26,902 nt of DNA from a virus. Lineage: Duplodnaviria > Heunggongvirae > Uroviricota > Caudoviricetes. Position 1 is the first letter of the stretch, and each line of letters starts with the position of its first letter. Positions 1-12,000 of the stretch are shown here, one piece after another. The stretch lies in the IMG/VR virus record IMGVR_UViG_2541047123_000048. One strand, given 5' to 3'. The position numbers were made by a program.

Positions 1-3000
1 ATGGACAACGACAAAATTGATCAACACAGCGACGAAATTGAAGTTGAGAGCGAAGAAAAAGAGCGTGGCAAAAAAATAGAAATAGATGAAGATCGACTCC
101 CCTCCCGGGCGATGGCAATTCATGAGCATATCCGCCAGGATGGTGAAAAAGAGCTGGAACGCGACGCAATGGCACTACTGTGGTCAGCCATTGCGGCGGG
201 TCTGTCGATGGGCGCTTCATTACTGGCAAAAGGGATATTTCATGTCGAACTGGAAGGTGTGCCGGGCAGCTTCTTGCTGGAGAATCTCGGTTATACCTTT
301 GGTTTTATTATCGTCATTATGGCCCGCCAGCAATTATTTACCGAAAACACCGTGACTGCGGTACTACCCGTCATGCAAAAACCGACAATGAGCAACGTTG
401 GCTTACTTATGCGGTTATGGGGCGTCGTGCTGCTGGGTAATATTCTCGGGACAGGTATTGCGGCGTGGGCATTTGAATATATGCCAATCTTCAATGAAGA
501 AACTCGCGATGCATTTGTCAAAATCGGCATGGATGTGATGAAGAACACCCCCAGCGAGATGTTTGCCAACGCGATCATTTCCGGCTGGCTGATCGCCACT
601 ATGGTATGGATGTTTCCTGCAGCGGGTGCGGCAAAGATTGTGGTGATTATATTGATGACCTGGCTTATTGCCCTGGGTGACACCACTCACATCGTTGTCG
701 GTTCTGTTGAAATCCTCTATCTGGTGTTTAACGGTACGCTGCACTGGAGCGATTTCATCTGGCCCTTCGCACTACCTACTTTAGCGGGGAACATCTGCGG
801 CGGCACCTTTATCTTCGCGTTAATGAGTCATGCACAGATCCGTAACGACATGAGCAACAAGCGCAAAGCAGAAGCACGCCAAAAAGCAGAACGTGCGGAA
901 AACATTAAGAAAAATGATAAAAACCCGGCATAAATGGCGAGGGTTTAAGCAATCGAGCGGCAGCGTACTTACCCCGCAGTCCATTAGCGGGTATACTCAT
1001 GCCGCATTGTCCTCTTAGTTAAATGGATATAATGAATATAAGTATTAAGTCATTGATTTAAATACAGAAAGTGGCGAAATAATCGTCATATCAGTACCCA
1101 TTTATGTACACACCCCGTTAAGCATGCCCCGCACTTCCGTACGGGGCATGTTCTTTACTCCACTCCCACTTTTTTGTTGTACTCGCGGTTAAACCGATCC
1201 ACGGCAATTTTCATATCCCGCTCAACCGATTTCACCATCGCCGACTGTTGCGCCAGACTGAGAGTACTGTCGGCGTAAATGGCATCACGCTGTTTACGCA
1301 AATCCTTCAGTCTCTTCCGGGTATCCTGCATAAGCCCGTTCATCGACAATTTTCCGTTGTTCTCGTCAATGAACGCCGTTCTTTCTGCACCGGTCAGACT
1401 CTTCAGCTCTGCGTGATACTGCGCAACCTCTGTCATCCGGTCGTACATCTTCTGCTGGTCAGCATACGGCATCACCTCACCTGAAATTTTCCCCAGGAAG
1501 GGCACCTGCTGCTCCGGTATATCAATACCGTTCAGCGATTTCACCGCCGCATCCGTGGTTTTGGAAATGAAGCGCCCTGTCCCTCCGGAGATATAGTCAA
1601 TCCAGTATTTCAGTGATTCCGGCGTGACATCCACCGCACCGGAACGGTACTGGCTGCCACCAGAGAACGCATTCAGCCAGGATGCAAACGCCTTGTACGC
1701 TTCTGGCGTTGAACGTCTTCCCAGCTGGCTGTCAGGTTTTGGTGTACCAAACGGCATGTTCTCCTGGTAAATCTGCGCCCCCATGAAGTTTTCGTTCATG
1801 GCAAGATTCGCAAACGGACGCAGAATTGTCGGTGCTGCATTTTTCAGCAATGCCCCGGACAGTGTTTCCGACGTTTCACTGCCCACAGGACTGAATGCCC
1901 CAAGCACACCACCAACAACATTACCGGCAGCACGTGAAGCGGTCAGGTCGCCCGCTGCCACCCCTTCGGCTGTGTGACCAAGCAGGAAGAAAACGTTGTA
2001 CCCGTAAGGCAGAGGAATACTCCAGTACTCTCCGGCCTTGCCCCCGAACACCGATTTCATAATGACGAGGTTACGCTCTTTCACATGAGACGGCACCTTG
2101 TCATACCAGTTAACCCCGTCATCATCCTCCCCCGCAACACTGCGGTTAAGCGAGCCAAGCAGATAACCCGCTCCCACAGCTGCAAGCGCGATTTTCTGCG
2201 GTACATTGAGATTCTTCCAGCGAAGGCGCTCCAGTAACGGCCCGTCGCCATTAAGATGTCCGAGCGTTCTCACCAGGTTTGCGGTCCCCTGAATGCTGGC
2301 GTTGGCGAACATGTACAGCGAGTTCATCAGCGCTCCCTGCTCACCACGACGGTTAAAGTTCACCGTCATGTTTTTGGCAAGAGACGCCGCCTGCTGGCGT
2401 GACAAACCGGCATCACGGGCGTGTTTATAGGCAGAAAGACGCAGAGCGTTTTCAACCGCCCCGTTGGCATCCTCGACAAGGTTAAGGAACGAATTCCATG
2501 CACCGATACTCTGGCCTTTCCATCCTCCCTTCGCCAGCGATACAAGGCGATCCATTTCCTTCTGCTGGCCTTCAAGGTCACCCATGTTAAACCAGCCGGT
2601 TTTACCTCCGTCCTCAACAAACTCTTTCCACACCTTCTGCCACTGTGCACCTTTTCCCGTGAGGGTTTTACCACGCAGACTGGCGTATACGGCTGACATG
2701 GCAGAACGGCTGTCTTTCACCACAGCCAGGGCGGATAAGTTATCCAGCCCTTTCAGTTTACCGTCGCTCCTTCCCTGCTCCGCCTTCAGGTTCATCACCG
2801 CCGTCTGCACGTCACGGATGAAGTTACTGACCAGGAATTCCGGGTTATACGACGTGTTCACCGTTGCCAGGAAGCGGTTAACTTTCCCCAGCGTACGAAC
2901 AAAGGCATTGCTGGTTTCCGGTCCCATATTCTTCATCGCACGCATCAGGCGCGGATCATGGAGTTTGATGTAGTACGTTTTGCCGTTCTTTTTGGTGGTG

Positions 3001-9000: not shown

Positions 9001-12000
9001 TAGCCTTCGGTCATCGGCGTATTCAGCGCACGAACTGCACCCGGCGACATCTTACCGGTCAGCCATTCATCAGTGGCTTTAGCACCATCACTGACAGCCT
9101 TACCGGTTGCCTTCAGACCTTTACCGACAGTATCAGTAACCGCGTTTTTGCCATCAGGCAGGGTATCGATGACCTCATCAGCCCCCCTGCTGCCACCGGC
9201 AAAAATATCCTGCACAGTTGCGACACCCGGCAGCCCCATACGGCTGAACTCATTTAAAATACGCGCCCCTGTTTTTACCGGGCTCTGAATCATCGCATCA
9301 CCGAGTCCACGGGCCATTTCCCCTGTTCCCCGGACGGACTGGGCGAAACCTTTACCCATTGTTGGCAATACATCGCCCAGGCTGAACGACGTACTGTTAT
9401 CCTTCCAGCGATTCGGATCAGAGAAAAATGCTTCATAGCTGTCAGTTTCGCCGGGTTGCTGAATGTTCAGGCTGTTACGATTCTGGTTACCGAGTTGCGC
9501 CTCAGGACGCTGTTCCTCTGAATAGGCCATACAGACTCCATAAAAAAACCGGCACAATGGCCGGGCATCAGGAAATGGTATTAATGGAATATCGTGAATT
9601 ACTGGGCGTAATTCTGTTTCAGTCCACGGATAAACTGAGATGCAGATGAAGCACTTTCATCTCTGGCCTGTTCCCCCCTAGCCTTTTGAATACGGAGAAA
9701 ATTCGCATACCCGTTCTCCAGCAATTTCTGATTCTGAGGCTCCAGCATTTCAGGCTGACGGGCCGCTACATTTCTGGCAAATGACAGCTTATCAGGATCA
9801 TCTCCCGCCCAGTTGATAACCTGTTGCTGAAGTTTTTGTTGCTGAATTTTCTGTTGATGCGGTTGTGAACCAGTCGCAGCATAATATTCATCCACCGCAG
9901 CCTGTGCATTACCGCCATTCTTGATCGCGTCCGCCGCTACGTTGCTGGCCCCCTTCTGAAGCTCTTTCAGAGAAAGTCCCTGCTGCTTCGGCATAAAATA
10001 ACCATAATTTTTCGATATCTCTGCAAATTTGCTGCGATCCCTGACCTGAGCGATAGCCTTATCAACGGGTATCGCCAGCACGGTTTGATCATCAGGGTGC
10101 GCACTGCCGTATTCTGTTACAGGTTTATGCGCGGTGGAGCCATCGCTGTATGTGAGATCAAGGCCAATAAGTACGTACCCTTCCTGCTGCGCCGGTACGA
10201 TACTGCCAATCCTGGCCTCTTTTATCGTTTTTTCCCCGGTTGAATCAGGCATGCCAATACGCTGTTGTAGTTCCGGGGCAAACACGCCGGAAAGCACATC
10301 GAGATTTTCCGGGGTATTCAGCGAATCGATCGCCATGTCCGGCTTATCACCAAAGATTTTTTGCAGGTTGATCACGGCCTGACCCGCTTTCGCTGCATAG
10401 CCTTCGTTTGACATAAGAATTAATGGATGTCCCTTTGGCAGCTGCCCGAACAGACGCGTTGCAGCCTCCTGATCGCCAGCCTCAATTGCTTTTCCAAGCG
10501 CTTCCATTAGTGGCTGGCTATGGGCAATCATATCGTTATACTCAAGCCGTCGCTGGTTGTATTTTTCCAGTTGCAGTCTCTGCTGAGATAGCCCAAGTGA
10601 CGCATTTCGATAATTCTGCGCTGCTTTGTGTTCCCTCTCTTTCAGCGCATATTCACGGTCAGCATTCCTGACATTAAGATCATATGTACGCTGATCATTC
10701 TCTTTTCGGTGCTCAAACTGCGACTGCGCAAATTCAAAATCGCGCTCGTTATTTTTCTGTTGCTGAGCAAGCTGTGCTTCTCGCAAACCAAGCTCCTTAC
10801 GACGGGTCATTGCCTGGTCAACGGTGCTGAATCCGGCAAGTAACCCCTGTGCAAATCCGCTCATTCACCACTCCTTAAAACAAAGCGCCTGCAATGCCGC
10901 CAATCACAGCACCAGCAGCTATCCCGACGGGACCAGCCCATGCTCCGAGCGTGGCCCCCATTGCAGCGCTGGAGCCTGCCACAGATGCACCCACAGCAGC
11001 CCCCGTACCAATGCCCGTGGCGATATTCTGTTTTTTCTGAGCTTTCTGCTGCGCCGCCATCATCTTGTTTGACGCCTCAATTTCTTCACGTCGTCTGTCT
11101 GCCTCGCTTATTCCCTGTAATGCCTCACGCCGCGACTGATTTGCAATATCCAGTAAACCGTATCCCATATTTCCTCCTTACGCTGCCACCAGTTGTCCGC
11201 CAACACTCAGTTTCTGTCTTGCCGGTGCAGAAGCCCCCGTCAGAATATTCATCTGGCGATCCTGTTCGGCTTCACGGATACCATTTTTCGCGCCAGCAAT
11301 TGCCAGGGCATTACGTAACCCCAGCGTATTACTGTCGGGATTATCCGGGCGGCTTACCCCGTATCTCGCCATCTGGTTATCCTGCGCCATCTGCGCTGTA
11401 CGGAGACTGGAAGTGGCAAGGCCGCCCACCCGGGCAAGCTGTGCATTCATCAGGCTGTTGTTCTCGCCAAGGTCAGCCAGCCTTGCTACACGGGGTAAAT
11501 ATCTGGTGCGCCAGTCGTCGTATTGCTGGCGGGTCAGCGCTGCGGATGTCTGCCAGTCCCCCTGAGGGCGGGCTGCTCCGGTATAACCGTATCTCGCAAG
11601 TGTTTCGTATTTACCGTACTCCATAATCACAGTCTCCAGTTCTGAGCCTGATACTGAATGGCATTAGCGCCGGTGCCAGGTGTTTTAGCACCGCCACTTC
11701 CTCCGCTACCACCAGCCTTATGCATCGCATATGCACCTACCGCACCCAAACCAGCGCCAACAAGAGAGGCTCGCCCCTGCTGTTTCGTAAACGCAGCCTG
11801 TGCGTCCGATTTAGCTTTTGCCAGACTGCTGTCTGCCAGCGAGTTAAAACTCTGTAACGCATCCGCCTTCTGACCTGAACCGAGAGCTGCAACATCCTGT
11901 AGCCCGGCAACATACTTATCTGCCTGCGATACCTGCCCCCGTGTGGTTGTGTCAATCTGCCCGGTTACCTGATCACTCTGGTTCGCATTCATTACCGCGT

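Follow-up and report, generated by a model that had tools for sequence, protein, structure and literature searches.

The largest gene in the 26,902-nt stretch of tailed-phage DNA analysed here (IMG/VR record IMGVR_UViG_2541047123_000048, hereafter the window) encodes a giant protein of 2,791 residues, which we consider, with a probability of about 65%, to be a virion-packaged polyvalent protein of short-tailed Shiga toxin (Stx)-converting phages that is probably ejected and that acts as a delivery chassis with swappable cargo. We base this reading on what is seen in sequence or in predicted structure, namely which domains are present, how far residues of catalytic type are conserved, how the chassis is built, the homology to the virion RNA polymerase (vRNAP) of phage N4 and the cysteine-free composition.

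The minus-strand frame of the giant is open from 9557 to the stop codon at 1155-1157, and its first ATG, at 9530-9528, is preceded at a distance of 5 nt by a GGAG ribosome-binding site (9536-9539). An earlier, sequence-only reading of the window had reported an open reading frame (ORF) of ~2,790 residues at 1155-9530 with HExxH motifs at nt 5673-5687 and 4872-4886; the single frame is borne out and both motif positions agree exactly, the second being HEIIH at aa 1549-1553. Given the His and Glu content of the protein, 0.034 HExxH motifs per giant are expected by chance, and the Poisson probability of two is ~6e-4. The DNA of the gene is matched at 90-100% identity by 186 phage records, nearly all of them from Stx-converting phages, and with only 2 mismatches by Escherichia phage PA28, where the product is gp48 and is labelled 'LPD5 domain-containing protein'. 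It is also present in 427 of 5,426 complete E. coli genomes, annotated there as 'LPD38 domain-containing protein', and phrog_616 matches the protein over its full length. The gene is the last of the late region, adjoining attR and downstream of the fibre, nozzle-like and internal-protein genes, which is the late, virion-gene setting expected of a phage-type polyvalent protein.

Presence in the virion and essentiality have been shown by others for orthologues. The orthologue from phi24B, gp47, was detected by mass spectrometry in purified virions, is invisible in the cryo-electron microscopy maps and has been suggested to act as an ejection protein packaged inside the capsid (bioRxiv 10.64898/2026.04.10.717836). 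In the proteome table of the same preprint, gp47 accounts for 10,962 peptide-spectrum matches (PSMs), second only to the capsid protein; its peptides span aa 92-2414 and include the peptide LRHEIIHHAMEH, and the orthologues of the genes upstream of the giant (gp48, an 86-aa ORF, gp50 and gp51) were all detected in phi24B virions as well. The supplement gives total PSMs for each peptide. Across the gel slices, marker proteins peak by size, with the portal (80 kDa) in slice EA1810, the fibre in EA1811, the nozzle in EA1813 and the capsid protein in EA1816. By our own reading of these data, 62% of the gel PSMs of gp47 fall within the four slices above the 80-kDa portal slice. The protein therefore appears to be stored mostly as very large species, and any processing by the zincin domains described below would thus be partial or would follow ejection, as has been argued for N4 vRNAP, ArdC and TraC1 (Iyer et al., PMC5512222). 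The length-normalised spectral counts of gp47 lie at or above approximately the per-residue level of the 12-copy portal, which suggests, as a crude estimate, a copy number of the order of ten or more per virion.

The orthologue from Sp5, ORF80 (ECs1242; 2,793 aa), belongs to a set of nine morphogenesis genes that are essential, and upon its deletion DNA-filled heads still form but are not bound by an antibody against the tail fibre (PMC5155283). A giant of phage PTXU04 (2,198 aa), for which LPD38 is the sole annotation, is likewise essential by CRISPRi-ART. The probable reason for the essentiality of the giant is that its chassis takes part in completion of the portal vertex and/or in DNA delivery.

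Profile searches now assign domain families to the giant, none of which could be named by the sequence-only reading, and they support its suggestion of a polyvalent, multi-domain protein. Pfam recognises LPD5 (147 bits), LPD1 (84), MuF_C (64) and LPD38 (166), with cut-offs of ~27 bits, such that unrelated domains are combined within a single giant, as in phage-type polyvalent proteins; these four domains were defined for polyvalent proteins of phages and conjugative elements, and LPD5 is listed as possibly enzymatic (Iyer 2017, PMC5512222). LPD5 and LPD1 nearly always occur together in the homologues. Pfam searches with 300-600-aa tiles (E<=10) added no family for the N-terminal region, the linker, the second metallopeptidase domain or aa 1840-2480; a match to Peptidase_M76 (E 0.2) in the tile search was disregarded.

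LPD1 (aa 1359-1438) corresponds to the C-terminal half of a first zincin-like metallopeptidase domain, MP1, and bears its Glu helix. MP1 aligns, over aa 1180-1435, with positions 3-245 of the 250 in the NCBIfam profile of CLCA_X (E 1.3e-43, 149.3 bits, which is below the curated cut-off), a group from phages and plasmids that is sister to the CLCA zincin proteases and was linked to CLCA_N by HHalign (Lenart 2013, PMC3650047). On the basis of its sequence, MP1 is a domain related to CLCA_X and not an equivalent of the stand-alone family. Residues invariant in 31 homologues (48-57% identity), which are the candidates for the active site, comprise H1261 and E1263 of the AHYEP motif, all three conserved positions of the HExxH motif (H1282, E1283 and H1286), D1289, E1373, R1377 and E1380, and the candidates for the third ligand, D1289, E1373 and E1380, are found among them. 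A phage-type metallopeptidase (MPTase) clade has been described in which strand 2 ends in a His and HEXXH is followed three residues later by an Asp (Iyer 2017, PMC5512222), and MP1 fits this clade exactly in sequence. The MP1 profile gave only a weak match in the PDB, to the HExxHxxD helix of anthrax lethal factor (E 0.21), and hhalign of MP1 with the second metallopeptidase domain gave a weak match over the strand-2 His and the HE helix.

For the second zincin-like domain, MP2, we used aa 1440-1750 to search 1.84 billion cluster representatives exhaustively, which yielded 427 proteins (E<=1e-3), most of them giants of 1.5-6 thousand residues. Among 136 aligned representatives (50% clustering), E1550 and E1605 are present in all 136, H1549 in 134 and E1612 in 126, with the downstream helix following the motif QAEEvxAhxAE, and a second His is found at position +4 or +5 in 134 of the 136. 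The family consensus is HExxxH[H/Y]G (128/136), corresponding to the HEXXXH MPTase clade noted by Iyer et al. (PMC5512222), and the shorter HEIIHH is restricted to the six closest members, including this protein, which form the Stx-phage clade. Thus, the second HExxH of the sequence-only reading does mark a conserved zincin-type domain, but the family form of the motif is HExxxH, and HExxH is a reading specific to the Stx-phage clade. In the structure model of MP2, the motif sits in a predicted helix (76-95), and the mixed sheet, active-site helix and Glu helix of a zincin fold are all predicted; resemblance to solved zincins does not go beyond the fold (6-18% identity). Because both motifs lie in conserved, zincin-like domains of predicted globular fold, each with a plausible third ligand, and not in linkers, the concern raised by the sequence-only reading that they might fall in non-globular regions is not borne out. 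Searches of the PDB with the whole protein, MP2 and the C-terminal module, using single sequences and profiles, gave no significant match, and when homologues of the MP2 tile were sought once more through a word index, only 11 close fragments were returned, which were unfit for alignment. Zinc binding and peptidase activity are predicted for both MP1 and MP2.

Between MP2 and the C-terminal module resides MuF_C, in which the candidate catalytic residues H1750 and S1814 are each conserved in 39 of 39 relatives. Together with the Pfam score, these residues, which would correspond to the His of the N-terminal helix and the Ser/Thr of strand 4, identify the domain by sequence as a putative PBECR. 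MuF_C was defined by its authors as a BECR-fold predicted RNase (PBECR; Iyer 2017, PMC5512222). The phrase 'Muf-C metallopeptidase domain' in the phi24B preprint (bioRxiv 10.64898/2026.04.10.717836), on which its idea of peptidoglycan degradation is based, is therefore a mislabel, since the family was defined as a predicted RNase and not as a peptidase; the predicted peptidases of the giant are MP1 and MP2. A second published label concerns Sp5 ORF80, for which a COG1483 (AAA+ ATPase) call in 2016 was used to propose an energy-requiring step (PMC5155283); no ATPase family was found in the giant at E<=1 with Pfam or NCBIfam, using the whole protein and tiles. As for the possibility, entertained by the sequence-only reading, of a conventional tail fibre or tape-measure protein, the giant is neither: no matches to fibre, collagen or tape-measure domains were obtained with Pfam, PHROG or NCBIfam, and the fibre genes are separate ORFs.

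To define the overall architecture, 125 giant relatives of 1.8-4.7 thousand residues were placed on this protein. The N module (aa ~150-450 in this comparison) is always N-terminal, MP2 is central and often directly abuts the C module, and the C module always forms the extreme C-terminus, with the stretch from the N module to MP2 varying from a few hundred to ~2,500 residues. Two segments of the N module stand out, one moderately hydrophobic (aa 181-208) and the other Gly-zipper-like (aa 406-433), and the C module has a further moderately hydrophobic segment (aa 2443-2465). Almost no relatives align with the linker that follows the N module, and from aa 400 to 1100 most of the 100-aa windows are only 20-46% identical to the closest full-length relative. 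In the BFVD library of viral structure models, 70 entries are predicted to share the fold of the C module, with TM values reaching 0.82 across ~900-1,000 columns, and the entries listed are mostly the last fragment of a split giant; among the proteins with this fold are the polyvalent protein of PTXU04, one from a Ralstonia phage and others with lysozyme-like (LT_GEWL), RelA/SpoT and methylase annotations. The C module is a conserved chassis without a solved homologue. As read from sequence, the chassis would comprise the N module, a disordered linker, MP2 and the ~930-aa helical C module with LPD38, and the putative cargo of this giant would be LPD5 with the CLCA_X-type MP1, as well as the PBECR RNase domain (MuF_C).

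The N module links the giant to N4 vRNAP (gp50), the best-characterised ejected giant. A hidden Markov model (HMM) of 34 N modules matches aa 231-445 of N4 gp50 with E 1.1e-8, and this segment scores 29.7 bits compared with a maximum of 8.4 in 2,000 composition-preserving shuffles. Moreover, hhalign of the N module with the N-terminal domain (NTD) of N4 gp50 gives a probability of 93.7%, and the N4 NTD alone matches the N module of one relative, P0178, with E 3.5e-15; no Pfam family covers this region in either protein. By sequence, the giant therefore appears to possess the N-terminal (lipid-binding) domain of N4-like vRNAPs. In N4 vRNAP, this lipid-binding NTD with predicted membrane helices is followed by a ~100-aa low-complexity linker, the RNA polymerase cargo and a C-terminal domain composed of a HExxH zincin-like C1 and a ~110-kDa helical C2 without structural relatives, and gp50 leaves the virion as 'beads on a string', accompanied by gp51 and gp52 (PMC13434306). 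Comparison of MP2 with N4 C1 by hhalign was not significant, and HMMs of LPD5, MP1, MP2 and the C module gave no matches to the N4, T7 and P22 ejection proteins. The giant is not itself an N4-like vRNAP, since Pfam finds vRNAP_dom, N4_RNAP_helical and vRNAP_plug in N4 gp50 and not in the giant. Thus, sequence comparison demonstrates homology of the N-termini, and the remaining order of parts is regarded as an architectural analogy.

In addition, the giant is devoid of Cys over its 2,791 residues, and together with the four proteins encoded upstream there is no Cys in 3,675 aa, although other virion proteins in the window do contain Cys. Among relatives of at least 1,500 aa, 99 of 113 are without Cys, with 25 Cys in 308,727 residues overall. 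The same is true of the ejection proteins gp50, gp51 and gp52 of N4, gp15 and gp16 of T7 and gp7, gp20 and gp16 of P22, with T7 gp14 having a single Cys, and the replication enzymes of N4, T7 and P22 have 1.1-2.3% Cys. The sequence-only reading had guessed at an ejection module, which agrees both with the phi24B virion proteomics and with this composition, which is common to the ejection proteins of N4 and P22 and to T7 gp15 and gp16. We infer that the absence of Cys fits passage in a partly unfolded state through both a narrow channel and the oxidising periplasm, and a cysteine-free composition may be a general marker of proteins threaded through phage tails. This point was not found in the polyvalent-protein paper (PMC5512222), the ejection-protein review or the N4 paper (PMC13434306).

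Taken together, we suggest that several to a few tens of copies of the giant would be stored in the capsid along with the four small cysteine-free proteins. After release of the tail needle, the stored proteins would exit via the tail channel, partly unfolded and as beads on a string, whereupon the N module, perhaps joined by hydrophobic segments within the C module, would engage the cell envelope and help to form or stabilise a conduit for the DNA; it is for this proposed contribution to the conduit that the gene would be essential. Cleavage of the polyprotein, or of host targets, by one or both zincin domains could follow, and the RNase domain would be active in the cytoplasm.

Several observations weigh against this reading. 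Ejection, engagement of or insertion into membranes, autoproteolysis, RNase activity and the targets are each something that we infer, for the giant and for its close relatives alike. The phenotype of the Sp5 deletion was interpreted as a defect in tail assembly and not in ejection, because the tail-fibre antibody gave no label (PMC5155283), and the gel data from virions contain no clean processing products. The hydrophobic segments are weak, with Kyte-Doolittle values of 1.2-1.4, the 149 bits of MP1 fall short of the curated CLCA_X cut-off of 260, with its zincin fold predicted from sequence, and comparison of the C module with N4 C2 by hhalign is not significant. Lastly, the four upstream proteins have no similarity to the ejection proteins within the same N4, T7 and P22 reference set.

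An alternative that would accommodate the Sp5 phenotype is that the giant serves chiefly in the structure or assembly of the tail or portal vertex, for instance as a plug, scaffold or head-completion protein, with enzyme-like domains that are secondary or inactive. We regard this as unlikely, since gp47, although very abundant, accounts for none of the densities resolved in the tail, portal and capsid of phi24B, the residues H, E, H and E of MP2 are near-invariant in the 136 representatives, which argues for retained catalysis, and both the architecture and the N-terminal homology match the ejected N4 vRNAP. An internal protein that has to fill the lumen of the portal or tail before the tail can be completed would reconcile the structural and ejection views. 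Less probable still is a metallopeptidase that digests peptidoglycan and thereby opens the way to the inner membrane for a trans-periplasmic conduit. This was proposed in the phi24B preprint (bioRxiv 10.64898/2026.04.10.717836) and would be in keeping with other podovirus ejection proteins, such as T7 gp16, that carry a cell-wall hydrolase, as well as with the LT_GEWL lysozyme-like domain of some relatives sharing the C-module fold. However, the preprint ascribes the peptidase to MuF_C, that is, to the BECR-fold RNase domain, and both zincin domains resemble protein endopeptidases of the lethal-factor and CLCA types. Moreover, searches of the giant with Pfam and NCBIfam revealed no lysozyme, transglycosylase, M15 or M23 domain, and Iyer et al. 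(PMC5512222) favour autoproteolytic processing for these MPTase clades.

We consider it very improbable that the giant is a dispensable carrier of anti-defence effectors, like DarB of phage P1, with its sole role directed against restriction or abortive-infection systems. Although the polyvalent-protein concept (PMC5512222) and the predicted RNase cargo would suit such a role, neither the orthologue from Sp5 nor the relative from PTXU04 is dispensable in laboratory hosts, and the methyltransferase and helicase domains of DarB were not found in the giant with Pfam or NCBIfam, on which grounds a DarB-like antirestriction identity was rejected. The end of phrog_10089 ('DarB-like antirestriction') does match the C-terminal part of the giant, but the match is confined to aa 2349-2679 and thus to the shared C module. 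Returning to the ejected polyvalent protein that we favour, we tentatively raise the possibility, which we hold to be less likely than not, that N4 vRNAP and the LPD38-type giants descend from one ancestral ejected carrier, in which the NTD docks in the envelope or ejectosome, the zincin and helical C-terminus control packaging and release, and the middle serves as a swappable cargo bay, occupied by the RNA polymerase in N4 and by peptidases and an RNase here. If this common origin were true, the Stx giant would be the central and essential part of the DNA-delivery machine of the commonest Stx phages, and the total absence of Cys would be a general, usable predictor of tail-threaded phage proteins.

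The four genes located 5' of the giant were described by the sequence-only reading as encoding small Gly/Ala-rich proteins. Their sizes are as it reported and three of them are indeed rich in Ala and Gly (25-39%), but at 19% the 421-aa protein is not especially so. At its end, the 97-aa protein has a long hydrophobic stretch that resembles a Gly/Ala zipper, GIGTGAAVGASVAGSSAAMGATLGAWAGPVGIAAGAVIGGIAGALF, and the 218-aa protein has a similar short hydrophobic segment followed by a Gly/Ser tail; from their sequences, these tails of the 97-aa and 218-aa proteins would suit membrane insertion after ejection.

The late operons of lambdoid and Stx phages are transcribed by a Q-antiterminated, terminator-resistant RNA polymerase. 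A hairpin followed by a T tract is indeed present where the sequence-only reading had placed a terminator, but it is short and weak, with five G-C pairs and a 6-nt loop (9564-9549) and a tract of seven T running to 9542, and it occurs at chance frequency, given that 13 terminator-like sites were observed in the 12.3-kb region and 12.7 are expected from shuffles. The local fold is similarly unremarkable (z = -0.73). The proposal that the giant is expressed by attenuated read-through is therefore weak and, with the late operon being read by a Q-modified polymerase, implausible. Apart from this point, the interpretation given by the sequence-only reading largely holds. Two much stronger terminator-like hairpins on the minus strand, at 12307-12326 and 13165-13183, have 8-bp stems and tracts of six to seven T; they share the strand of the late genes and bracket a 133-aa gene just downstream of lom, and by sequence they look like the boundaries of a moron-type insertion.

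Table 1. Coordinates in the window of the giant gene, its domains and motifs, and the features upstream (aa, residues of the giant).
Feature	Position (nt)	Strand	Basis or remark
Giant ORF, 2,791 aa + stop	1155..9530	minus	Open-frame analysis; orthologue of PA28 gp48, Sp5 ORF80 (ECs1242) and phi24B gp47
N module, aa ~100-470	8121..9233	minus	Hydrophobicity; HMM homology to N4 gp50 NTD
N-module core, aa ~260-420	8274-8753	minus	Homologous to N4 vRNAP (gp50) NTD, aa ~231-445
Low-complexity acidic Pro/Gln/Arg-rich linker, aa ~470-900	6831..8123	minus	Composition; poorly conserved
LPD5 domain, aa 1049-1198	5937..6386	minus	Pfam PF18799, E 5e-43
Zincin-like metallopeptidase 1 (MP1), CLCA_X type, aa ~1180-1438	5217..5993	minus	NCBIfam NF041907
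HExxH motif 1, HEWFH, aa 1282-1286	5673..5687	minus	Translation; conservation in homologues
Zincin-like metallopeptidase 2 (MP2), aa ~1470-1690, folded core 1474-1614	4461..5123	minus	Third-ligand helix candidate QAGE1605FLAHMAE1612
Motif 2, HEIIHH, aa 1549-1554	4869..4886	minus	Reads as HExxH and HExxxH
MuF_C / PBECR, predicted metal-independent RNase, aa 1748-1837	4020..4289	minus	Pfam PF18819, 64.2 bits vs cut-off 27.6
C module, aa 1860-2791 (~930 aa), mostly alpha-helical + small beta subdomain	1158..3953	minus	
LPD38, aa 2474-2679, inside C module	1494-2111	minus	Pfam
Terminator-like hairpin + T tract	9542..9564	minus	In the 68-nt gap 5' of the giant gene; weak
Four genes (421, 97, 148 and 218 aa) 5' of the giant	9599..12283	minus	PHROGs without assigned function; cysteine-free; candidate co-ejected internal proteins
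421-aa ORF	9599-10864	minus	Ala+Gly 19%
97-aa ORF	10875-11168	minus	Ala+Gly 39%
148-aa ORF (150 aa from upstream GTG)	11178-11624	minus	Ala+Gly 25%
218-aa ORF	11627-12283	minus	Ala+Gly 29%

At the right end of the prophage, yfdC ends at 933 and the 25-nt core of the PA28 attR lies at 1008-1032; ARAGORN detected no tRNA gene at this end, within positions 1-1400. Elsewhere in the window, two inverted copies of an IS3-family insertion sequence (IS), IS1203/IS629-like in the matching genomes, are present at 18366-19405 and 25862-26902 and are 99-100% complementary. The segment between them (19406-25861) contains the genes from capsid to tail fibre and is inverted with respect to PA28 and to the remaining late operon, and none of the complete E. 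coli genomes matches in one piece past position ~19406. An IS-mediated inversion has probably broken the late operon, and the prophage may for that reason be defective. Within the 645-aa tail-fibre gene (23286-25223), positions 24001-25000 reach a G+C content of up to 65% with a strong purine skew, in keeping with reports of collagen-like Gly-X-Y repeats in the fibre of Sp5 and 933W.

With regard to what was known before, earlier publications cover the gene and the family to which it belongs, its general interpretation, its essentiality and the occurrence of its product in virions, so that the existence of the giant is not in itself a new finding. New here are the assignment of both peptidase domains with their candidate ligands, the correction of two published domain labels, the N-terminal homology to N4, the definition of the C-terminal chassis and the cysteine-free signature. 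Short-tailed Stx2 phages disseminate the genes of Shiga toxin among E. coli, and the gene of the giant makes up a seventh of their genome. Our analysis narrows a 'hypothetical protein' to two predicted zincin domains with named candidate residues and one predicted RNase domain, with no AAA+ ATPase, and links its N-terminus to the experimentally ejected N4 vRNAP; the cysteine-free signature may, in turn, help to find ejected proteins in other phages.

Among known systems, gp14, gp15 and gp16 of T7 and gp7, gp20 and gp16 of P22 resemble the giant as internal virion proteins of podoviruses that are encoded as a block late within the structural operon, are cysteine-free or nearly so and are needed for infectivity. 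They are much smaller, however, lack the polyvalent architecture and have no sequence similarity to the giant, and the transglycosylase of T7 gp16, annotated as a cell-wall hydrolase, has no counterpart in it. With lethal factor (ATLF/M34), the giant shares an HExxH helix and a downstream Glu helix, where E-F-F-A-E-A-F of lethal factor compares with E-M-A-A-R-A-F-E of MP1 and E-F-L-A-H-M-A-E of MP2, but the MP2 family motif has one residue more (HExxxH) than lethal-factor-like zincins. MP1 spans nearly the whole CLCA_X profile (NF041907) and differs from that family in its score below the cut-off and in being embedded within a giant instead of standing alone.

The polyvalent proteins of Iyer et al. 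share with the giant the two MPTase clades (HEXXHxxD with a strand-2 His, and HEXXXH), PBECR, LPD1, LPD5 and LPD38; their paper (PMC5512222) discusses neither the Stx-phage giant, with 933W and Stx having 0 occurrences in it, nor the link of the N module to N4 vRNAP. Sp5 ORF80, phi24B gp47 and PA28 gp48 (Sepvirinae) represent the same gene at the same site, after the same four small genes and before attR. Compared with the PA28-type phages, the gene itself is materially alike, whereas the neighbouring capsid-to-fibre block is here inverted between the two IS copies. Relative to N4 gp50, the Stx giant lacks an RNA polymerase module and has instead a second predicted peptidase and an RNase domain. 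Nevertheless, both are giant cysteine-free virion proteins encoded after small ejection-protein genes, and both run, by homology at the N-terminus and by architectural analogy thereafter, from an NTD through a linker and cargo to a HExxH domain and a helical C-terminus of ~1,000 aa.

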